A stretch of 64,000 nt of DNA from Dictyostelium discoideum (taxonomy: Eukaryota). Below, piece after piece: positions 4,440 to 63,048 of this stretch (positions are counted from its first letter, which is position 1; every line of letters begins with the position of its first letter). The translations under genes and the position numbers were made by a program. The notes under the pieces are model-generated. The model had not been told where the DNA came from, did not search any database, and saw only the letters and a program-made list of their open reading frames with translations. The stretch spans positions 4,992,001 through 5,056,000 of the forward strand of contig CM000152.2 of the NCBI GenBank assembly GCA_000004695.1, read 5' to 3'.

Positions 4440-4803
4440 TGATGGTGGTGATGATGATGATGATGATGATGAGGATGATGATGATGAATTAATAGTAATA
4501 GATTCTACAAATGATAAAAGTTGTACTAAAATATTAAAAATGAATAAACCATGTCTTTGGAAGTTTTTTGATGAACAAACTAGTATAACTGTATCATTTT
4601 TAGATTATATAAGTGGTTCTGATAAAGCAATTTTAAAGTTTTCATCACAATTAGATATTCAAAATGCAATTGACCAATTTCAATTAGGTGAAATTAAACT
4701 TTACAATAATATTTTAAACATCATCCATCTATCCGATTCTGAAATTAATTCATTAAAACAAAGAACTCAATCACATGAAAAATCAAAATTTGGAAATCAA
4801 AAA

Positions 4804-8988: not shown

Positions 8989-11811
8989 ATGGCAAAAAAG
9001 AAATTTGTAGAAAATACAAACTGGAAAAAGATTGACACAGATAATCAATTAATTTTTGAACAAGGTGGTTTTTTAGGTTTGGAAGAAATTGATCCAAATG
9101 ATTACTTTTTAACTGATAAAAATGTTGATAAAATTGAAAAACAACAAAAACAAAAACAAAAACAAGAACAAGAACAAGAACAAAAACCAACAAACAAATT
9201 AACAACAAAATCAACAACAAAATCAACACCAGTACAAAACAAGAATCAAAAACCAGTTGACAAAAAGAGAAAATCAAAAAAAGGTAATGATGATTCAGAT
9301 AATGAATATAGTGGTTATCAAGATGATAGCGATCAAGATGATGAATACTCTGCAGCTAAAAAGAAACCAAGAATTATAAAACCAACTGAAACAGTTGACA
9401 TGGGTACTGAATTATTAAATTCTTTTGTTGAAGGTACTGTCCATAATAAAAAGAAACAAAGAAAAGGAATAAAAGTTAAACAAATTATCGATGATAATGA
9501 TAATGATTTTGAAGATGAAGAGGAAGAAGTTAAACCACAACAAAAATTACAAAAACAAAAACAACAAGAACAAAAGCAAAAACAACCACAAAAACAACCA
9601 CAACAACCAAATAAAAAAAATAATAAAAAGGAATTACAAAAAGAAGAAGAGGAACAAATGGAGGAGGAGAAGGAGGAAGAAGAAGTACAACAAGAAGAAG
9701 AAGAAGAAAAAGAAATTAAAAAACCAATTAAAGAAAAAAAAGTTAAAACTCAAAAACAAATTGAAGCAGCTAAAAAAAATATTAATAAATTAGAAAAGAT
9801 TAAAAAGAGAAAAGAGATTTCAGAACAAAAAACAATTTCAAAAGAGGAACAAGATCAATTAGATATGTCAGAATGGAATAGTTATAATCTTGATCCATTA
9901 ATTCTTAAAGGTTTACGTTCATTAGGTTTCTCAAAACCAACAGAAATTCAATCATCTGTTATTCCAGTTGCAGTTTCATCAGGTTATGATGTTATTGGTG
10001 CAGCTCAAACTGGTTCGGGTAAAACTTTAGCATTTGGTATTCCAATGGTACAAAGAATTTTACAACATTTAAGAAAACATGGTCAAAATGTTGAAAATAA
10101 AGCTAACAAACAACAAAATGATAATGATGACGAAAATGAAGATGTTGAAGAGGAGGAGGAAGAAGAGGAAGAAGAGGGTAGATCAAAAGAATATAGAAAA
10201 TTATTTTCATTAGTAATTTGTCCAACTAGAGAATTAGCAATTCAAGTTACAAATCATATTAAATCAATTATTTCACATACAAATTTAAAGGTTATTTCAA
10301 TTGTTGGTGGTATGGCATCACAAAGACAACAAAGAGTTTTATCAAAGAGACCAGAGATTGTTGTTGCGACACCAGGTCGTCTTTGGGAATTAATTACTGA
10401 AGGTCATCAACATTTAGTTGAATTGGAAAGTTTATTATGTTTAGGTATTGATGAAGCAGATCGTATGGTTGAACAAGGTCATTTCGCAGAGTTGGAAAGT
10501 ATTTTAAAGACATTACCAATTCATCGTACAGCAATGTCAAAGAAAGAAAGATTAAAAAAGAAAGAAACCGAAGAAAAGCGTAATAAACGTAGAAAAGTTG
10601 ATAAATTAAATGACAAGGGTGAAATGATTAAAGGCGATCAAGATGATATGGATGATCAAATTCCAGATGAAGAAATGGAAGAATTAGAACAAGAGGAACA
10701 AAACCATCTTACAACTACACACAAAAGACAAACATTTGTTTTCTCTGCAACACTTGTAAACATACCAGGTGATGGTGCACCAACAAGTCAAAAAAAGAAA
10801 TATAGAAAATTGACACCAATTGAAAATTTAATTGAAAAAGTTCGTTTCCAACGTGACTATAAATTAATTGATGTGACTCAAAAGAGATTGACAGCAAAGA
10901 ATCTTTTAGAAACTAAAATCTTTTGTAATCTTGAAGAAAAGGATATGTATCTTTATTACTTTGTTGAAAGATATCCAGGTCGTACATTGGTATTTGTAAA
11001 TTCAATTGATTGTGCACGTCGTTTAATTCCAATTTTCAATATATTAGAGGTACCAGTATTTGCACTCCATGCACAAATGCAACAAAAGCAACGTTTAAAG
11101 AATCTTGATCGTTTCCGTACTTTAGATAATGTGGTTTTAATTGCAACCGATGTTGCCGCTCGTGGTTTAGATATTCCATTGGTTCAACATGTAATTCATT
11201 ATCAAGTACCACGTACAACTCAATTATACATTCATCGTAGTGGTCGTACTGCTCGTTCAGATCAAGATGGTATTTCAGTTGTATTGGTAACTCCAAAAGA
11301 ACGTCCACTCTATATTAAATTGGATTCTTCAATCGAGCATGATATTGGTAATTTCCCAACCGATATTCGTTATATGGAGGGTGTTAGAGATAGAATTGAA
11401 TTGGCAAAAGAAATCGATAAATTATCTCATCAATCATTAAAAGATAATAGAGAGAAAAGTTGGTTCAAAAAACAAGCTGAAGAAATGGATATCGAATTGG
11501 ATGGTGACTTTTTCGGTGAAAACTCTGATGATGAACAATCTGAAGATACTCGTATAGCTGAACAAAAGAAACAATTTAAATTAAAACAATTAAGAGCTCA
11601 ATTGAAACACTTACTCTCTCGTTCACTTTTACCAAGAGGTGTTTCTCAATCCTATATCACTGCTTCTGCAATTCAAGAATTAGAATCAAAGAGTCAATCT
11701 TCCGCTGCAACTGATTTCTCAAATAAAGCTAAAAATGTAATTGGTAAAAAAGCAAAACAACTTGCAATTGAAAATCATTCAAAATTTTTAACAAAAAATA
11801 AAAAGAAATAA
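8989..11811 (+). CDS. ddx24: DEAD-box ATP-dependent RNA helicase, DDX24/Mak5-like, 940 aa
   Basis: Single ORF with Q-motif/motif I (GAAQTGSGKTLAFGIPM), a long acidic insertion after motif I, then motifs PTRELA, DEADRM, SAT and HRSGRTAR. The N-terminal region is Lys/Glu/Gln-rich. The insertion between motif I and Ia is typical of DDX24/Mak5. Confidence 0.85.
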   Translation: MAKKKFVENTNWKKIDTDNQLIFEQGGFLGLEEIDPNDYFLTDKNVDKIEKQQKQKQKQEQEQEQKPTNKLTTKSTTKSTPVQNKNQKPVDKKRKSKKGNDDSDNEYSGYQDDSDQDDEYSAAKKKPRIIKPTETVDMGTELLNSFVEGTVHNKKKQRKGIKVKQIIDDNDNDFEDEEEEVKPQQKLQKQKQQEQKQKQPQKQPQQPNKKNNKKELQKEEEEQMEEEKEEEEVQQEEEEEKEIKKPIKEKKVKTQKQIEAAKKNINKLEKIKKRKEISEQKTISKEEQDQLDMSEWNSYNLDPLILKGLRSLGFSKPTEIQSSVIPVAVSSGYDVIGAAQTGSGKTLAFGIPMVQRILQHLRKHGQNVENKANKQQNDNDDENEDVEEEEEEEEEEGRSKEYRKLFSLVICPTRELAIQVTNHIKSIISHTNLKVISIVGGMASQRQQRVLSKRPEIVVATPGRLWELITEGHQHLVELESLLCLGIDEADRMVEQGHFAELESILKTLPIHRTAMSKKERLKKKETEEKRNKRRKVDKLNDKGEMIKGDQDDMDDQIPDEEMEELEQEEQNHLTTTHKRQTFVFSATLVNIPGDGAPTSQKKKYRKLTPIENLIEKVRFQRDYKLIDVTQKRLTAKNLLETKIFCNLEEKDMYLYYFVERYPGRTLVFVNSIDCARRLIPIFNILEVPVFALHAQMQQKQRLKNLDRFRTLDNVVLIATDVAARGLDIPLVQHVIHYQVPRTTQLYIHRSGRTARSDQDGISVVLVTPKERPLYIKLDSSIEHDIGNFPTDIRYMEGVRDRIELAKEIDKLSHQSLKDNREKSWFKKQAEEMDIELDGDFFGENSDDEQSEDTRIAEQKKQFKLKQLRAQLKHLLSRSLLPRGVSQSYITASAIQELESKSQSSAATDFSNKAKNVIGKKAKQLAIENHSKFLTKNKKK

Positions 11812-14100: not shown

Positions 14101-14281
14101 AAGTTCCCAGGAATAAATAAAATATATTGAATATATCACCGTTAAAAGATTTATCACATGAATTTTTTGATTTTTTTTATTGATTTTTTTTTTTTGTAAT
14201 TTTTTTTAATTTTTTTTTTATAATTTTTTTTTTTTTTATAATTTTATTTTTTTTTATTTTTTTTTTTTTCAACAACGAAAT

Positions 14282-14455
<174 letters not shown>

Positions 14456-14669
14456 TTATTTAATCTTAAATGTAAAATAAATAAATAAATAAAAAGAATA
14501 AAAAAAAGAATAAAAACAATAATTTAATAATAAAAAAAATAAAAAAATAACAATAAAATAGTTTTTTATTTAAAAAAATGAATTTTTTTGAAAAGGTACC
14601 TATAAACCTATTTATTTATTTATTTTAAAAAAATAAAGTTACGTGGGAAATTATTTATTTGTTTACTAA

Positions 14670-18931
<4,262 letters not shown>

Positions 18932-20983: not shown

Positions 20984-21456
20984 AAAATTTGTTCAATTAT
21001 TATTATTACTAATACATTCATTATATAATTTTTAATATTTTATAGAATTCAATAGAAATTACAAAAGCAGAAGATTTCAAAGTTTTAGGTGAAATTGAAC
21101 AAAAATATTTTACAGATATGGTTGAAAAAGTTAAAGCTACAGGTGCAAATTTAGTTATTTGTCAATGGGGTTTCGATGATGAAGCCAATCATTTACTCCT
21201 TCAAAATAATTTACCAGCTGTTCGTTGGGTTGGTGGTTTAGATCTCGAAAAAATTGCTATGGCAACTGGTGGTCGTATCGTTGCTAGATTCGAAGATGTT
21301 AGCGCCGATAAATTAGGTAGAGCAGGTTTAGTTAGAGAAGTCGGTTTTGGTACAACTCAAGATCGTTACCTTTCAATTGAAGATTGCCCAAATACAAATG
21401 CAGTTACAATCTTTGTTAGAGGTGGTAATAAAATGGTAATTTTCAATTTAATAATT

Positions 21457-21539
<83 letters not shown>

Positions 21540-22049
21540 TAATTAATAATTAATTTATAACTAACAAAATAAATAATTTAAATACATAAATATATATAGA
21601 TTGTTGAAGAAGCTAAAAGAAGTATCCATGATGCATTATGTGTTACTCGTAATTTAATTAGAGATAATAGAGTAATTTATGGTGGTGGTTCATCAGAGAT
21701 TAGTTGTGGTTTAAAGATTTCAGCAATGGCTGATGATATTGCATCCATTGAACAATATGCCGTTAGAGCTTTTGCTGATGCTTTAGATGCTATTCCATTA
21801 GCATTGGCTGAAAATAGTGGTCTTCCATCCATCGAATCTTTATCAACCGTAAAGGCTATGCAAATTAAAGAAAAGAACCCACGTCTTGGTATCGATTGTA
21901 ATCATAGAGACACCAATGATATGAAGGCTCAACACGTTTTCGATACTCTTCCAGGTAAAACTCAACAATTCCTCTTGGCCAATCAAGTAGTTAAAATGAT
22001 TTTGAAAATCGATGATATTATTAAAATGGGTCCAGGAGCTGACGAATAA
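20149..22049 (+). CDS. cct5: T-complex protein 1 (CCT/TRiC chaperonin) subunit epsilon
   Basis: Exons 20149..20925, 21046..21435 and 21600..22049. The N-terminus [18 protein letters not shown]...GPKGMDKMM...TNDGATIL...[17 protein letters not shown] is near-identical to CCT5. Exon 2 has [27 protein letters not shown] and exon 3 has [30 protein letters not shown]. Intron 2 (21436-21599) contains an (AAT)25 tract. Confidence 0.95.
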
Positions 22050-38912: not shown

Positions 38913-43144
<4,232 letters not shown>

Positions 43145-52641: not shown

Positions 52642-53139
52642 TTATTTTGTTGTGTGTGTTGGGAATTGAAATTTAGAAAAATGAAAAAAAAATTTTATAT
52701 TAATTTTTTTTTTTTTTTTTTTTTTTTAATTTTGGTGAAATTTTTTTTTTTTTTAATTTTATTTTATTTAATTTAATAATTTTATATTTTTTTTTCCAAA
52801 AAATTATCGGAAATTGTTTTAAAACATTCCAGAATTATTTGATGGATTTTTTTTTTATTTTTAGTAACATGGCATTGACATGAAATGATAACCCAAAACC
52901 ACCTATTTATTTTTAGTCAAAAATTTTGATTTTTATTTGGACGACAAAACTATAAATAGGATTTTTTTATTTTAAAGTGATTGACTTGAAATGCGACATT
53001 CATAATTTTTTATTTTTTTTTAAATTTCACTGCACATTAACTTAATATCATCAATCAATAATAAGGCATCTTCAAAAGTATTTACTTCAAACTCTATTTG
53101 TAAAAAAAAAATAAAAAAAAAAAAAAAATTAGTTTAGGG

Positions 53140-53179
<40 letters not shown>

Positions 53180-53355
53180 TTACTAATTTTCTTTGGTTTG
53201 TATACTACTTCACCAGCTAATTTATTGAATGAGTTTGTTGTTTTAGACATTGCTATTTTAATTTAATTTGATTTGTTTTTTTTTTAATAATAATTTTTTT
53301 TTTTTTTTTTTTTTTATATAAAAAAATTTTGTGTTATAAATTTTTTTTTTTTTTT

Positions 53356-53423
53356 ATTGACACTGACACTGAGATTTTTATGCGAGTTTTTTTTTTTATT
53401 GATACTGACACTGAGATTTTTAT
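53356..53423. repeat. Direct repeat: 26-nt unit attga[c/t]actgacactgagatttttat x2, each preceded by T10-12, with a partial inverted copy (gtgtcagtgtca) at 53494-53505
   Basis: Unit 1 is 53356-53381 and unit 2 is 53398-53423 (1 mismatch). The reverse-complement core tgacactgacac recurs inverted about 90 bp downstream. It lies in the long divergent intergenic region between the adh5-like gene (-) and the 55304 membrane-protein gene (+). Confidence 0.8.
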
Positions 53424-53782
53424 AAAAATTTTGCATTCTTATGGTCAGTCTTATTTAAAAAATAAAAAGAATAAAAAACCTTTAAAAATCTTTGTGTCAG
53501 TGTCATTCTTCAATAAAAAATAAAAAAATAAAACTCATGTAAAAATTTTTTAATTGGGTCAAAGCAATTAAAAAGAGTCATTTTAGTTTGATTTTTATAT
53601 TTTTAATTTTATTTAGTATCAAAACTTTTGAAATTATAATATTATTATTAGTAATATAATTTAATATTTTAGAGGGCAGAAAATCATTTTTATAAATTCA
53701 AATTACAATATTTTAAACAATTGGTGAACCTAAAGATCTAAAATTTGGAACTTGTTATTTTTTTAAAAAATTTAAATCATTT

Positions 53783-53990
53783 ATCACCCTTTTGAGATCA
53801 GTCTTGTTAATTTCTTTTTTCGATTCAGTTTTTAAAAATATTGTGTGAGAATCACTATTTTATTTTTGGATAGAAGAGGATATTTATTTTTTTAAACTAA
53901 AATGAAAGAAATTTTATTAATTCAACCATAAATTTTTTGAAAAATTGAATCAAAATAAGAAATTAACAAGACTGATCTCAAAAGGGTGAT
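53783..53990. repeat. Perfect 34-bp inverted repeat (atcacccttttgagatcagtcttgttaatttctt / reverse complement) flanking about 140 bp
   Basis: Arm 1 (53783-53816) is the exact reverse complement of arm 2 (53957-53990). It sits in an ORF-free, comparatively GC-richer island (about 53560-54480). Candidate MITE/foldback element or structured RNA. Confidence 0.85.
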
Positions 53991-55174
53991 TGGAGAACAC
54001 CTGTTAGATAGCAATAATCAAAATCAAAAATTTATAGATAATCCAGAATATTTAAGTTGAGAAAACTATACAAGAATTAGAAATGCACCATATCCATCAA
54101 CCAAGAGCCAAATGTAATATTTTCAGCTAATACATTTGATCTGCTCTTCGGAGAGACAACCATTTTAATTACTTAACGAAAATACTAATGTTTTTAATGA
54201 TATTACGATTCAGGTAACCAATGTAAAAAAGGTAGATATCATCAAAGAAAATACTCATATATGCTGGGGTTCCAACCTAGATATGAAAGGATTGGTGATC
54301 ATTTTTCTCATTTTTAACATTTTGAATGGAATGTAATCATCTTTAATCTTTTTGTCAGATAAAATCATTTAAAAGATTTGATGAAGTAAATATCAATTTC
54401 TGTACATAAAAGTAATACAATTCCCTGTCCATTAATAAAATGATCAATACTTGGTCATACAACATTAAATGTTTTAATCATGGGCTTTTTTTTTTTATAA
54501 TTTTTATTTATTTTTTTTTTTTTTATTTTTTTTTCTTTTAAACAAATTTTAAAATTAGTTGAATAAATAAATAAAAAGGATTTCAAATAAAATTTATTTA
54601 AAATTTATTATTTTAACAAACACACCACATTTTATATTTTTAATCCAATCTAAAAAACAAAAAAAATCCCAGATATTTTTTAGATTTTTTTTTTTTTTTT
54701 TTTTTTTAAAAATATCACTTTCACAATTTGTTTATTATAAAAAATAAAATTAATTTTTAAAATTTTATTACAATCATGATCTGCAATATTTTTCACTTAA
54801 TAAAAATATTAAATGACGCCATCACGAGCAATCAATAAAAAAAAAAAAAAAAAAAAATAATGGTTGGGATGACTGGTTTAAGAAACTCGTGGGTTTTAAA
54901 GTTTTTTTAAGACTATTAACATTTTATTTAAAATAGTCTTGATATTTTTTCTTTTTTTTTTTTTATTTTTTTTTTTTTTTTATTTTTAAAAAATATCTTA
55001 TTGTTGTGGCCAATGATGACGCAGAGGTTTTTTTTGAACCTAACATTAACACAATTGATTTCTTTAACTATCGTATTTTTTTTTTTTTTAAAAAAAAAAA
55101 AATGTTTTGTCATTATTTTCTATTAATAAAAAATATCTAAAAACTGTTTTTTTTTATAAAATTTGTTTAAAACC

Positions 55175-55212
<38 letters not shown>

Positions 55213-55303
55213 ATTTTCTTTTCTTTTATTTTCTTTTTATAAATATATAAATAAATAAAATTTATACAAATAAAACTAAATTAATAAATTAACCTAAATA
55301 GAA

Positions 55304-58300
55304 ATGGGGTTCTATGAATCATTTAGGTCAATTTATAATTTTAATTCAATCAAGGTTAAAGTTTCTCTAGTTGAAGCATTGGCAGTTTCAGTTTCAGCAA
55401 TTGTAGCTATTTTACCATGGAAAGATTGGGGAATAATTTGGAGTGATGGAACATTAATTTATACTCCGATTATGTGTTTAATGGTAACTAATAATGTATC
55501 ATCATTTACAAATATACATTTATCAATTACAATGTTAATTGGTACATTGATAGCATGTTTCTATGCATTCATAATTATGTTAATTACAAGGGACATTGTT
55601 TGGATAACATTCTTTCCAACATTTATATTCTATTATGTTATTACAGCCACTTGTAATATACCAAATAGAAAATGGATGACTGGTTTATTTTTAAAAGTTT
55701 GTTTTCTATACCTTTTCATGACATTGTATTTCACAAAGATTGAAAATATGAATAATGACATTGTTGAAGATATTTATAGTATGCTATTCGTAGTTGCAAC
55801 AGTCATAGTATCGTCACTTGTTTTCCCAACATTAGCATCTCGTTTAATTTTTGGAAAAGTTGTTAAAACTTTGAATTCCACAAGAACTTATTTCCTTTTA
55901 ATTGGTAATTTATTTGAAGAAAAGTTAGGTAAAACTAGTGGTAAGATTAATAATCAAATTTTCACAAATACATTCCAACAATTAATAAAAGAACAACAAG
56001 ATAAACAAAATTCAAAATCAAATGTAATACCTGAAAAACCAATGTTAAACTTTTCCTTAAAATCTCAATTAAATCCAACTCAAGAAATTCCAATGAATAT
56101 ATATAGTATTGGTGTTACACCATTATTGAAATCTCAAACTTCAATAGACCAATATGAAATCCCAGAAGAGAAATTAAAATTACCATTATCAAGATCAATG
56201 AATAATAATAGTAATAGAAGTGCTGTTGTTTTAGATATCGGTAGACATAGATCAACTACTACCAATACCACTAGTACTACAGCAAATAGAGTTCGTTCTA
56301 AATCAGTTTTATCAACCCAAAATTTAAAAGAAAAAATTGAAATTATTAAAAATCAAAATTTAAATCCATTGGAGGAGGAAATGCAAATATTGGAAATTGA
56401 ACTTACAAATAGAATTGCAACAATGACCAATTTGTTGTCAGAGTCAAGAAGTGAAAGATGGAATGATGATTTGAATGATAATTATGATAAATTAATATCA
56501 ATGTTTGAAATGACATTAAAACAATTAATTTCAATTAAATCATCAATTGAAAATGGTTTTAATCAAAATTCAATCGATGAATTAATTCAACCATTAATTC
56601 CATTCATTCAATGTTTAATTGAAGAAGTTTACTTACAAATGGGAATTATGATTGAAATATTAAAAAATCAAAATTTTAATATAAATGATAATGATTCAAT
56701 ATTTAAAGTATTATTAAAATCATTTGATGAAACTCAAGAATTGGTTGATAGAGTTAAAGGTGCATTTAAACAAGTTGTAAAAGAATACCAAGAAACTAAT
56801 ATTCAATTATTATCAAATGATGATCTCACTAAAGCTCATTTCTTTGTTCATGGTATTCTATCATTTTCATTACAACAACGTCAATTTGCTGATATCTTAA
56901 TCAATGTTAAAAAACAACAACATTCATATTCAGTAAGATGGGAATTAATTAGATATGGTTTATTAATGGTATTATTTGGTTTCCCTTTAATGATAATTAA
57001 AAGATGCAAATTTATTAAAAATAAATTATTTGGTAGTGGTGGCAGTACTAATGGTAGCAGCAGCAGTGGTGGCAGTACTAGTGGTGAAATTAAAAAAGAT
57101 AATAATTTAATTTTAATTTTTAAATGGATTCATTTTAATTATTTTAAAGATGATAAATGGAGGTTTCCATTACAAATGTCAATTTCTTTAACAAGTGGTA
57201 CAATTCCATTCTTTTTTGTTGGTGATGGTGTTTCTGATAGTTCTGGTATGTTTGTTACATTTGGTGTTTGGACAGTAACAACAATAGTTTTTATCATTGG
57301 ACCCAGTGTCGGTGCATCAATTACTCAAGGATTTAGAGAGAGTAGAGGTACATTGGGAGGTGCAATAGTTGGTTTCGCAGTATCATTACTATGTAGTCAT
57401 ATCCCAACACCATATAAAGAAATTGTAATAATTGTATTTGTTTTCATTTTCACTTTCTTTATTTCATATCCACATCAAAATAAAATTCATTCCCAATCTG
57501 CTGAAATTTGTGAATTAACTTTTCTATTAGTACTTTTAGGTCAAAATCTATCCCATGATTTTGATTACATGTTTGCTGTATTAAGAACTGTTCATATCAT
57601 ATTTGGTGTAATCTGGAATGCTTTAATCTGTTTAATTGTATTCCCATTCTTTTCATACAAAAACACAAGAATTAAAATATTCCAAATTACAAATTCTCTA
57701 TCAGATACCTTTATCAATATTATCATTAATGGTTTAAGAATGAATGAACAAATTAATCACAACCACAACCAACATGGTGATAATCAAGATAAGAATAATA
57801 TTAAAAATATTTTAATTAATTATGATAAAAACTTCAACAATAACAATAATAATAATTATTTCGATAATATTAATAATATTATTAAATTACAAATTGGTAC
57901 ACTTGAATCAGTTAAATATTTAAGAGAGAATATGAAAAAAGAAATTTATGAATCATTAAAGGAGATTAGAATTGGCATTGATGGAATTAGAGATTCTTTA
58001 TCAAGTGTTGAATCTGAATTATATTTCGTATCACCTTCAAAAACTGTTAAATATTATTCATTAACTGAAAATTTAATTAATTGTTCAACTAGATTAATTT
58101 CCTTAGAAAATTCATTTGATCCAATTTTTATAGATTTAATTATTTTATCAATGTTTAATTTAAATCGACCATTAAATGATTTATTTCAACAATTGATTTC
58201 ATCAAAATCTGATATTAAATTATTAATGGCTGGTAAATTTAAATCATCATCTAATGGTGATGATATATTTAAACATTGTCAATTAATTAATGAAAAGTGG

Positions 58301-58507
58301 GATTTAGTTAAACAAGAATTTAAATCAATAAGATTATTCCTTTTAAAGGAAGGATTGTTCCATATCCTTCATCCTCATCAAATTCAATTTGGTTCTGGTA
58401 TTCATTCGATTGAATTATTCATTCAATCATTCATTCTTTTATTTGAAGATTTACGTTCAATTAAAGATGAAACAAGTTATTTAAAACAATTTTTAAAATT
58501 AAAATGA
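55304..58507 (+). CDS. Polytopic membrane protein with two hydrophobic clusters separated by large hydrophilic domains (FUSC/ArAE aromatic-acid-exporter-like topology), 1067 aa
   Basis: Single ORF. TM cluster 1 is about residues 20-190 (AVSVSAIVAILPW..., IGTLIACFYAFIIMLI..., FLYLFMTLYF...). A hydrophilic helical domain follows. TM cluster 2 is about residues 560-800 (LLMVLFGFPLMII, GVWTVTTIVFIIGPSVGASITQG, GGAIVGFAVSLLCS, ICLIVFPFFSY), and a C-terminal hydrophilic domain closes the protein. The family assignment is inferred from this architecture only. Confidence 0.5.
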   Translation: MGFYESFRSIYNFNSIKVKVSLVEALAVSVSAIVAILPWKDWGIIWSDGTLIYTPIMCLMVTNNVSSFTNIHLSITMLIGTLIACFYAFIIMLITRDIVWITFFPTFIFYYVITATCNIPNRKWMTGLFLKVCFLYLFMTLYFTKIENMNNDIVEDIYSMLFVVATVIVSSLVFPTLASRLIFGKVVKTLNSTRTYFLLIGNLFEEKLGKTSGKINNQIFTNTFQQLIKEQQDKQNSKSNVIPEKPMLNFSLKSQLNPTQEIPMNIYSIGVTPLLKSQTSIDQYEIPEEKLKLPLSRSMNNNSNRSAVVLDIGRHRSTTTNTTSTTANRVRSKSVLSTQNLKEKIEIIKNQNLNPLEEEMQILEIELTNRIATMTNLLSESRSERWNDDLNDNYDKLISMFEMTLKQLISIKSSIENGFNQNSIDELIQPLIPFIQCLIEEVYLQMGIMIEILKNQNFNINDNDSIFKVLLKSFDETQELVDRVKGAFKQVVKEYQETNIQLLSNDDLTKAHFFVHGILSFSLQQRQFADILINVKKQQHSYSVRWELIRYGLLMVLFGFPLMIIKRCKFIKNKLFGSGGSTNGSSSSGGSTSGEIKKDNNLILIFKWIHFNYFKDDKWRFPLQMSISLTSGTIPFFFVGDGVSDSSGMFVTFGVWTVTTIVFIIGPSVGASITQGFRESRGTLGGAIVGFAVSLLCSHIPTPYKEIVIIVFVFIFTFFISYPHQNKIHSQSAEICELTFLLVLLGQNLSHDFDYMFAVLRTVHIIFGVIWNALICLIVFPFFSYKNTRIKIFQITNSLSDTFINIIINGLRMNEQINHNHNQHGDNQDKNNIKNILINYDKNFNNNNNNNYFDNINNIIKLQIGTLESVKYLRENMKKEIYESLKEIRIGIDGIRDSLSSVESELYFVSPSKTVKYYSLTENLINCSTRLISLENSFDPIFIDLIILSMFNLNRPLNDLFQQLISSKSDIKLLMAGKFKSSSNGDDIFKHCQLINEKWDLVKQEFKSIRLFLLKEGLFHILHPHQIQFGSGIHSIELFIQSFILLFEDLRSIKDETSYLKQFLKLK

Positions 58508-59941: not shown

Positions 59942-62758
59942 ATGTCAGAACTATCAGAGAGTGGTAGTTATAATAGTTATAACTCGTTGAGTGCTGGTAG
60001 TCCATTACCATTACAAGAGATATTTAATGGAGCAGAAACTAAATGTCAAAGTCATTATTTACAATCACGAATTAATACAAACTATGAACAAGTTAAACAA
60101 CAATTAAAAGAATCTGCAGAAAAGAAAAACTCTTCAAAAATCTATTCATCACTTCAACATTTAACTTACTATAAAGTCGAAAAGGATTTATTAGAAACTA
60201 TCCTTAGAATCATTGATATCACTGATGATAAGAAAACGTTACGTTTAGCATATTATTTTTTAGGTGAAATTTCACAATTTAAACATTTAATTAATAATTC
60301 TACTGTAAGTATTATTATTATTATTATTAATATATTTATTTTTTAAAAAAAAAAGTATAATTAATATTTATATATATATATATATATTTTCTATTAGGAA
60401 ATTAAAAATATAACAACAATTTTTAATAAAGAGATGCAACATAAAGATATTTCAAGAAAAGTTGTATCATTAAAAACTACAGCATCTGTTGCACCAAATG
60501 ATGTTTTAATTGATGGTAAAATTATTAAATAATTCATATAGATAGATTAAAAATAATAAATACTAATATTATTATTTATTATTAATTATTATTAAATATT
60601 ATTAGCAAATATTTTAGATGTAATTTCAGGTATTTTAAGAAAAGTTGGTGAAGATCCAGATAAAACACAAAAAAAGAAAGGATTTTTTACAAGAGCAACA
60701 ACAGATTTAGGTAGAGAGAGGTCATTATTACAATATTCATGTTTTGTAGCATGTAGAAATAGATATAAGAATAATCCATCATTGTTTATGCCAATTGTAG
60801 AGGGTATTAAATGTGTGGATCCAGTAGGTGCAAGACATGCAGTTTCATTGACTCTAAATTATGCATTGGAGAATCCATCGACTGTGGCAGCAACTACAAA
60901 AAGATTCATACCATTGTTAAAGGCAAATAAAGGTAAAGAGGCAGTTTACTTGGTGGACCCATTCGCAAGAAGAAATTTCATAAAGCTTTGTGGTCATTTA
61001 GCAGCGACTCCATCACCCATTGGTAATGTGATCACCATGGAGAATAAGGATTTCTTTCAATCGTTGTGTCAATCTGTAATGGATGCTCATCTATCGGTTG
61101 CATTCTATGCAATCAATGTGTTGTCGAGATTCTCTTGGCCAACATTAGAATCTGCCCATATCGACGCCATCCAATTCGATTCAGAGTTGCCCCATTTCGA
61201 ATCGTTGGCATTCCAAACCTCACTAATCGTGGGCATTTGCAATAAGATGAGAATTGGTTTCAACACCTATTCCATTGGTGCCTATTCCAACTACTCGATG
61301 CAACATGGTCACCATCATCTCCATCATTATCATCAAGGTGGAAGCGGCACTGTCGGTGGATCCGTTCCATCCTCATCGTCGTCCTCCTCATCTTCCTCAA
61401 ACATAACCACATCAGCCTTATCATCAGGCTCATCTAGTAACTCATCATTGTCAAGTCAACAATTACTATTGGTACAACAACAACAACAACAATTACTACA
61501 TCAACAATCAAATCCATTCCTTCATTTAGCTTGTAAATTAATTTCGGTTCTATCACAATCCTATGTAAAATATTCTTATCCAAAGGATTCAACAACTCAA
61601 CAACCAATCATTGGCGATTGGTCATTCGATGAAAAACAATATCAACATCAATCAGTTTATCCATATCATCATAATTTATCACCATTTACTGGTTTACCAA
61701 ATCCAATTTCAAATAATAATAATAGTAGCAATAATACAAAAGATCAATCAACAACAACAACAACATCAACAACATCATCATCATCAAATTCTATACATCC
61801 ATTTTCAAGTTTAACACAATTAATTTTAAATTTATTAAATATATCACCAAGTATTTCAATTAGAATTCAAGCATTAAAAGCATTAGTTTGGTTATGTCCT
61901 TCAAATTTAGATCAATCAAAATTATATTTAGAAACTTTTAGAAGTCAATTACGTGATCCATATCATCCAACTCATTTATTTAAAGAATTATTTTTAGAAC
62001 TCTATAAGAGAATCATTGCAACACCAATACTTTCACCAATGATATTAGAGTTGGTTTATGATTGGATAGATATAATTCCATCGAAATGTGATACTAGTTT
62101 AGTTTGTGAAATTTGGAAAACCATAGTTGAATTTGGTAAAGTATTTGCCAATGAAAAACTATTGGCTAGTATCTTTAAGATATTGGATCGTATAGTTCAT
62201 CCAGATTTCCGTGTGCTTGCTATGGAGATTCAAAAAGATATCATTAAATTCCTTGGTGAATACTCCAATCAAATCACTTTTGAACAACCATCAAGATTCG
62301 AACAATGTAAATCACGTTCTGGTTCAAATCAACAACAACATCTTTCAAATATGTCTTTGAATTCAATCATTCAAAGATTACAACAATATTCAATCTTTTC
62401 ACCATGGCAAATTAGATTAGAATCAATTGATTCCTTGGCAAAGATAGCTTTTCAATCCTCAACCGTCGTTAAAGTTCATATCTATAACTTTTTAACTTTA
62501 CTTCCAAATGAATCTCATGGTTGGACAACCGTTAAATCAAATACTTCAATCATTGTAAATACTTTGGATCAATTGTTAACTTGTCGTGCTAAATGGTTAC
62601 CTCTATTCAAATCATCCGATCTATCTCAAAATCAAATTAAAGATCTTAAAAATGATCATACAAATCTTTGTCTACAAATTGGTTTATTCTTTGATCAATT
62701 ATCTTTTGATTATTTACCATTAGGTATTGAATCTAAAAAATATCTTGGTTCAAAATAA
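59942..62758 (+). CDS. Large helical (HEAT/ARM-like) protein of unknown function, about 865 aa, 3 exons
   Basis: Exons 59942..60304, 60434..60515 and 60606..62758. Donors are GTAAGT and GTAAAA; acceptors are AAAGAG and ATTAG. Frame continuity was checked: a stop at 60410 in the exon-2 frame forces the acceptor to 60433. The N-terminus ...IYSSLQHLTYYKVEKDLLETILRIIDITDDKKTLRLAYYFLGEIS is adaptin-trunk-like. The middle has His-rich, Ser-rich and polyQ linkers, and the C-terminal half is helical and Leu-rich. Confidence 0.6.
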
Positions 62759-62819
62759 TAATTAATAATAATAAATAATAATAATTTTTAAAAATTTAAA
62801 ATAAAATAAAAAGTAATAC

Positions 62820-62943
<124 letters not shown>

Positions 62944-63048
62944 GATAAAAATAAAATTAAAAATAAAAATTTATATACATATATATAATCTTTTTTCCTT
63001 TTTTTTTTTTTTTTTTTAATTTTTTTTTTTAATTTATTTTTTTTTAAT

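Follow-up and report, generated by a model that had tools for sequence, protein, structure and literature searches.

A foldback in intergenic DNA of Dictyostelium discoideum chromosome 3, upstream of DDB_G0281939, is probably young and lineage-specific, an inverted duplication of sequence close by that most likely arose through a replication template switch. It lies in a stretch of 64 kb that was analysed as a whole and is called the window below. Approximately 58-60 nt (53783-53842) would have been written in as the reverse complement of pre-existing sequence at 53931-53990, 90-200 nt downstream. During replication, the nascent strand would briefly copy the opposite or folded-back strand and then return to its own template, and this single event would leave an inverted repeat with perfect pairing. 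The event would have taken place inside a fast-evolving non-coding island, in the lineage that comprises the window, which is AX4-like, and the strain sequenced as GCA_054883475.1. Its product would be a 208-nt foldback, predicted to form a hairpin with a perfect stem of 34 bp (an imperfect one of about 60 bp) if either strand is transcribed. We infer the template-switch mechanism from the arrangement and ancestry of the two arms; sequence alone does not separate it from, for example, break repair with fold-back priming.

A long perfect inverted repeat in A/T-rich DNA

An earlier note on this DNA had described perfect 34-bp arms around a 140-nt spacer, and this geometry is exact: the segments 53783-53816 and 53957-53990 are reverse complements of each other over 34 nt. 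Complementarity runs on inwards to give arms of 60 nt, in which 55 of the 60 positions pair (92%). The full 208-bp unit is 74% palindromic, a value that was discarded as a feature of the whole unit, being due solely to the 60-nt arms; the central 88 nt between them (44+44) show no palindromy above chance. The coordinates of these and other features are collected in Table 1.

With a minimum arm of 14 nt and a maximum spacer of 600 nt, 1634 perfect inverted repeats were counted in the 64-kb window, and the 34-nt arm pair is the longest. It is also the only one with at least five G/C per arm (it has 11, and high dinucleotide entropy), the others being low-complexity A/T sequence. None of 100 dinucleotide shuffles matched it. 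Furthermore, the island (53560-54484) is 100% identical in the independent assembly GCA_054883475.1, which elsewhere differs from the window by about 0.5%, so the inverted repeat is not an assembly artefact. A/T-rich DNA does yield many low-complexity inverted matches (2073 pairs), but the G/C content of the arm, the shuffles, its uniqueness among the complex repeats of the window and its identity in a second assembly leave chance or artefact with a negligible probability. The chance palindrome that the earlier note had kept as a fallback thus gives way to what is probably a templated inverted copy.

Hairpin potential had also been proposed, and RNA folding indicates that it is strong. The 236-nt foldback region has a predicted folding energy of -82.4 kcal/mol (z -10.4) as the plus strand and of -76.5 kcal/mol (z -13.1) as the minus strand.

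Table 1. Positions in the window of the foldback, its surroundings and neighbouring features
Feature	Position	Strand	Remarks
5' arm, putative new lineage-specific inverted copy	53783-53842; perfect part 53783-53816	+	Absent at the orthologous site in L002, L007 and L003
Spacer (loop) between the 60-nt arms, ancestral as judged from orthologous loci	53843-53930	+	Partly kept in L002 and L003
3' arm, putative ancestral template	53931-53990; perfect part 53957-53990	+	Diverged form in L002, L007 and L003
Complex non-coding lineage-specific island	53772-54530	.	In window/L001, L002/L007 and L003; many large indels
Trivial hairpin CTCTTCGGAGAG, 3-4 bp stem	54144-54155	+	Part of no conserved feature
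Segment of 123 bp inverted in place in window/L001	53424-53546	.	Relative to L002, L003, L004 and L007
Second hairpin-capable inverted repeat	53385-53525	.	Fold z -5.3, -5.9; weak MIR-type Rfam matches
Small two-exon gene	about 53020-53250; exon 1 53250-53184, intron 53183-53094, exon 2 53093 to about 53020	-	Product MSKTTNSFNKLAGEVVYKPKKIKFEVNTFEDALLLIDDIKLMCSEI, 46 aa

Neighbouring genes and the non-coding island

To the right of the foldback, an open reading frame (ORF) of 1067 aa (55304-58507) matches KAM9950359.1 exactly and is identical to AX4 DDB_G0281939 over the 1049 residues that they share; it encodes a membrane protein of the ALMT/FUSC family, and the AX4 gene model is encoded exactly by the window. 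The AX4 model is longer (1109 aa), with two extra upstream exons within 54860-55303 that translate T-rich low-complexity DNA (…FSFFFFIFFFFLFLKN…), and in newer assemblies the protein begins with the ATG at 55304 and has 1067 aa; the extra N-terminal part of the AX4 model looks doubtful. To the left, the A/T-rich intergenic space is bordered by a zinc-type alcohol dehydrogenase gene on the minus strand. The 2.6 kb between these divergent genes had been taken as intergenic throughout; the A/T-rich intergenic space is there, but it holds a small two-exon gene. This gene is kept in D. firmibasis, as a called gene of 62 aa (L006 4166-4423), is uncalled in the D. discoideum-group assemblies L001-L003, and its 46-aa product has no match in Pfam. 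Upstream of it, a T-run followed by (A)CTGACACTGA(G)ATTTTTAT occurs in two to three copies (window 53345-53512; L003 8390-8510) and is recognisable as far as D. citrinum, as cactgacactgacagtgag (L005 about 4700-4722). This motif is probably a conserved cis-regulatory element; in the window its third copy is inverted and would form a hairpin (z about -5.5). Elsewhere in the window, many long period-3 repeats that cross-match one another by BLAST are found at about 14280-14560, 17530-17690, 18270-18425, 21450-21600, 40660-40925, 41700-41860 and 62750-62990; they are probably typical Dictyostelium trinucleotide coding repeats of the poly-Asn/Gln type.

Six orthologous loci were compared with the window: those of D. 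discoideum ACTFIR (L002) and ACTFIW (L007), D. cf. discoideum ACTFIY (L003) and ACTFIZ (L004), D. citrinum (L005) and D. firmibasis (L006). The locus of D. dimigraforme (L010) offered too little upstream sequence to inform the comparison. The identities of the ALMT protein give the tree (((window, L002), L003), L004), D. citrinum, D. firmibasis.

The foldback lies in an island that had been described as free of ORFs and of mixed composition. Indeed, there is no ORF of at least 40 aa within 53524-54454 on either strand, and the GC content of the island is 0.16-0.32 as against 0.10-0.18 in the flanking A/T runs. L004, D. citrinum and D. firmibasis have no counterpart of the island (about 53772-54530); at its site L004 has just about 60 nt, with 16% GC, between well-aligned flanks. 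The versions in L002/L007 and L003 differ by large, mostly lineage-specific indels, the lengths of which are not multiples of three, and no reading frame is common to the window, L002/L007 and L003, so that there is no conserved ORF among them. Neither the six translated frames of the island nor two frames of its L003 version have a match in Pfam, and the least-interrupted frame (3 stops in 125 codons) has no homologue among 5.8 billion proteins. The island evolves like unconstrained DNA. An old internal direct repeat is present in it (TGGGGTTCCAACCTAGATATG vs TGGATTTCCAACTCGGGATATG; 54264-54286, L002 about 9090-9120 and also L003), the second copy of which is gone from the window through a 24-nt deletion that L002 and L003 do not have.

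The earlier note had suggested a structured non-coding RNA as one identity for this region, a proposal that the data do not favour. Rfam gave no match at gathering score anywhere in the 64-kb window, the orthologous segments of L002 and L003 contain no long hairpin, and the part of the island beyond the foldback (53991-54484) is no more stable when folded than its shuffles (z +0.26 and +0.68). A tRNA scan found no tRNA. A snoRNA-like match to snR41 (20 bits, E=2.3) was set aside, its box C being broken in L002, where the region is deleted. Similarly rejected was a motif near 54476-54483 on the minus strand that we take to be DUSE-like; it is not conserved in L002 or L003. A nearby UUCG hairpin had been reported as tctcTTCGgaga at 54146-54157. 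A small hairpin does exist there, but it is CTCTTCGGAGAG at 54144-54155, and it is absent in L002 and not conserved in L003.

Ancestry of the arms and origin of the duplication

The two arms have different histories. Sequence corresponding to the 3' arm is present in the other lineages, as AAGAAATTAACGAGACTGATCTCAAAA in L002/L007 and AAGAAATTAGCGTGACTAATTTCATAAGGATGAT in L003; in L002/L007 it reads ...GAATCATAAAAAAAGAAATTAACGAGACTGATCTCAAAA and is followed by a deletion, the outer 13 nt being lost, and in L003 it reads ...AAAAAGAAATTAGCGTGACTAATTTCATAAGGATGAT. Parts of the loop are likewise retained (AAAAATATTGTGTGAG in L002, GGATAGAAGAAG in L003). The 5' arm is missing from L002, L007 and L003. 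Relative to L002/L007 the window has about 58 nt extra, at roughly 53763-53830, with edges that cannot be fixed exactly within T and A runs; alignment of DNA this rich in A/T leaves positions uncertain by a few bases. In L003 a larger gap spans the 5' arm site, which makes this locus weakly informative on polarity. By this comparison of orthologous loci, the 3' arm and the loop are shown to be ancestral. The left flanks of L002 and L003 are no more complementary to their own 3' arms than a composition-preserving shuffle null (P=0.42 and 0.80). A candidate relic of the 5' arm in L003, TCATCTTTAGGA, which matches 10/12 positions of the reverse complement of that locus's 3' arm end, was dismissed because the shuffle null scores higher.

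One substitution bears on the age of the copy. Within AACAAGAC, both arms of the window carry an A where L002, L007 and L003 have a G; therefore the copy would have been made, or re-made, after the lineage of the window split from L002/L007. The polarity thus has as its basis one clean substitution together with the absence of the arm in the L002/L007 clade. The flanks of the window and L002 differ by 14-17%, so that about five differences are expected in 34-nt arms that predate the split; none is observed. Judged by this divergence, 34 identical nucleotides are not expected of an old neutral repeat.

All five differences between the arms fall in the inner 26 nt of the 60-nt arms, four derived on the 5' arm and one on the 3' arm, and there are none in the outer 34 nt. 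Under uniform neutral decay, the chance that all five lie in the inner 26 nt is (26/60)^5, or about 0.015, a value calculated post hoc. One neutral copying event does not predict this distribution. Possible explanations are a second, later switch that homogenised the outer part, constraint on the outer RNA duplex, or chance. Inverted repeats with imperfect arms are known to be homogenised and expanded by template switching between those arms (PMC13100816), and the same process could be called upon by the view that the palindrome is old, predating the splits within the D. discoideum group, that it was kept perfect in the window by arm-to-arm correction and that it was deleted independently in L002/L007 and in L003. 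The divergence of the inner arms (5/26, about 19%) is similar to that of the flanks between window and L002, palindromes are readily deleted, L002/L007 have lost the outer 13 nt of the 3' arm and the island is full of deletions. This history, however, needs two independent deletions plus conversion instead of one insertion, L002 and L003 show no detectable trace of a 5' arm, and the excess of derived states on the 5' arm (four of five) fits a copy better than two equally old arms. We regard an old palindrome as quite unlikely.

A second reading offered in the earlier note was a miniature inverted-repeat element (MITE) or foldback transposon. Foldback geometry is present: long inverted repeats that look terminal bound an AT-rich unit of 208 bp, much as in MITEs and foldback elements, including the Dictyostelium thug. 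Additionally, the 750-bp island around it is present in some lineages and absent from others, and the D. discoideum DNA transposon families Tdd, DDT and Thug are poorly characterised (PMC5633606). Unlike such elements, however, the window unit has no target-site duplication (its flanks, ...aaatcattt / ATCACCC...GGGTGAT / tggagaac..., contain no direct repeat) and no clean whole-unit empty site. Its arms are unequal in age. Lineages without the left arm still have the right arm and parts of the loop, and so the unit did not come in as one piece. No second copy was seen in the 64-kb window or in the 10 fetched loci, and arm searches of metagenome and prokaryote collections were empty. There are no terminal inverted repeats at the ends of the island, and the Pfam and homologue searches of its reading frames, described above, likewise speak against a transposon. 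That the repeat is a MITE or a foldback DNA transposon, or comes from the end of such an element, is very improbable.

The preferred reading, a young inverted duplication, has precedents. Ripley is said to have put forward a quasi-palindrome model, and Loytynoja and Goldman reportedly described template-switch mutations that make inverted repeats, hairpins and in-place inversions. Published criteria require that a fragment of 15 nt or more be inverted and that this account for five or more differences better than a forward alignment does (Monttinen et al., 2023, PMC10710096). The proposed event agrees with them in fragment length and in the number of differences (at least five), and forward alignment of the window to L002/L007 leaves the insertion of about 58 nt unexplained. 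As regards the parental state, the template is found in L002, L007 and L003 and the copy in none of them; as regards states derived in the lineage itself, the copy carries the A, vs G elsewhere, that is seen on both arms. In common with the template-switch mutations described so far (PMC10710096; Rozenfeld et al., 2026, PMC13100816), about 60 nt repeat, in reverse complement, a sequence that lies within 200 nt of them, the template appears ancestral and the copy lineage-specific, the perfect pairing could come from one event, and an in-place inversion lies nearby in the same lineage. Unlike typical cases, the fragment is long and constitutes a net insertion instead of a replacement, and the differences between the arms are confined to their inner part.

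The nearby inversion affects a segment of 123 bp about 240 bp upstream of the 5' arm, in the same lineage. Local alignment to L002 and L003 gives scores of 63-78 in reversed orientation and 16-17 in forward orientation. The conserved GACACTGACACTGAG repeat occurs as direct copies in L003, and a second hairpin-capable repeat exists in the window because the inversion turned the third direct copy into an inverted one. In-place inversion is another listed outcome of template switching (PMC10710096). With two rearrangements of inversion type in the same lineage inside 600 bp, the site may be prone to switching, or both may stem from a single complex event.

Potential as a hairpin-RNA locus and significance

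The foldback could instead be an expressed hairpin-RNA gene, namely a young miRNA or hairpin endo-siRNA locus in which a transcript of 53783-53990 would be cut by DrnB or DrnA into RNAs of about 21 nt. We consider this unlikely, yet several of its properties are those of such a locus. The predicted hairpin is very stable on both strands. Like the D. discoideum miRNA genes (ddi-mir-1176/1177, mir-7089 onward and mir-1178 onward), which Hinas in 2007 and Avesson in 2012 are said to have described, it is intergenic, lineage-specific and of similar length, its 208 nt being comparable with the 152-179 nt of published D. discoideum miRNA loci. With few exceptions, the miRNAs of dictyostelids arose recently and are lineage-specific, and the intergenic 'modules' that carry them are missing as wholes in D. 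firmibasis, as is the island that harbours the foldback. The outer 34 bp, free of mutations as against five in the inner 26, could mean constraint on the duplex. Furthermore, template switching is a documented origin of new miRNA genes (PMC10710096).

Other observations argue against an expressed locus. A search of the supplementary miRNA data of Liao 2018 and Edelbroek 2024 recovered the positive control mir-7097 but neither arm, and no text in the searchable literature contains the arm sequences. Since the AX4 gene model is encoded exactly by the window, surveys of miRNAs in the laboratory strain very probably had the locus available. In D. discoideum, miRNA genes have an upstream T-rich tract ending in a G start site (Liao 2018); candidates for such T-rich-then-G motifs occur near 53590-53617 on the plus strand and 54011-53987 on the minus strand, but these motifs are ubiquitous in this DNA. 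Rfam run in E-value mode on the island returned as notable matches only two plant MIR families, whose models are long hairpins. This is in keeping with a hairpin-RNA gene, but the scores of 40.7 bits (MIR7533) and 33 bits are far under the thresholds of 230 and 144, and these matches reflect generic hairpin shape only. The foldback also differs from the D. discoideum miRNA genes in lying outside the published catalogues, in being known from its sequence only and in having a stem that is perfect over 34 bp, which is atypical of miRNA precursors and resembles an siRNA-type hairpin more.

Young plant MIRNA or hairpin-siRNA loci form by inverted duplication. The window arms resemble them in being long, near-perfect, not conserved and the probable outcome of a recent inverted duplication. 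The copied stretch in plants usually belongs to the gene that is later targeted, whereas the template here appears to be non-coding intergenic DNA with no recognisable target, and the window (about 0.2% of the genome) contains no target-like site.

It is improbable that the locus is a newborn small-RNA gene, a Dicer substrate which a template switch in the D. discoideum lineage made in one step and whose mutation-free outer 34-bp duplex is already constrained. If this were true, it would be the first documented hairpin-RNA locus born by template switching outside animals and, together with the hairpin made by inversion, would show how Amoebozoa rapidly gain miRNA 'modules'. On present evidence the element appears to be without established function and at most raw material for a hairpin-RNA locus, a role in which it could serve as the source of a new gene.

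As a mutation, the hairpin locus is a new instance of an already known kind. It offers a dated and polarised example of a long perfect hairpin that was probably made in one step from non-coding DNA, and 240 bp away the same lineage has a second hairpin, produced by in-place inversion. Turnover of dictyostelid miRNAs is very fast, and the origin of new hairpins in this group is an unanswered question (PMC11014262). If no small-RNA reads map to the locus, it would be a clean case of structural turnover under neutrality in A/T-rich intergenic DNA, and would recall that a conspicuous hairpin may be neither gene nor transposon. If such reads are found, the locus would link template switching to the birth of miRNAs or siRNAs in Amoebozoa.
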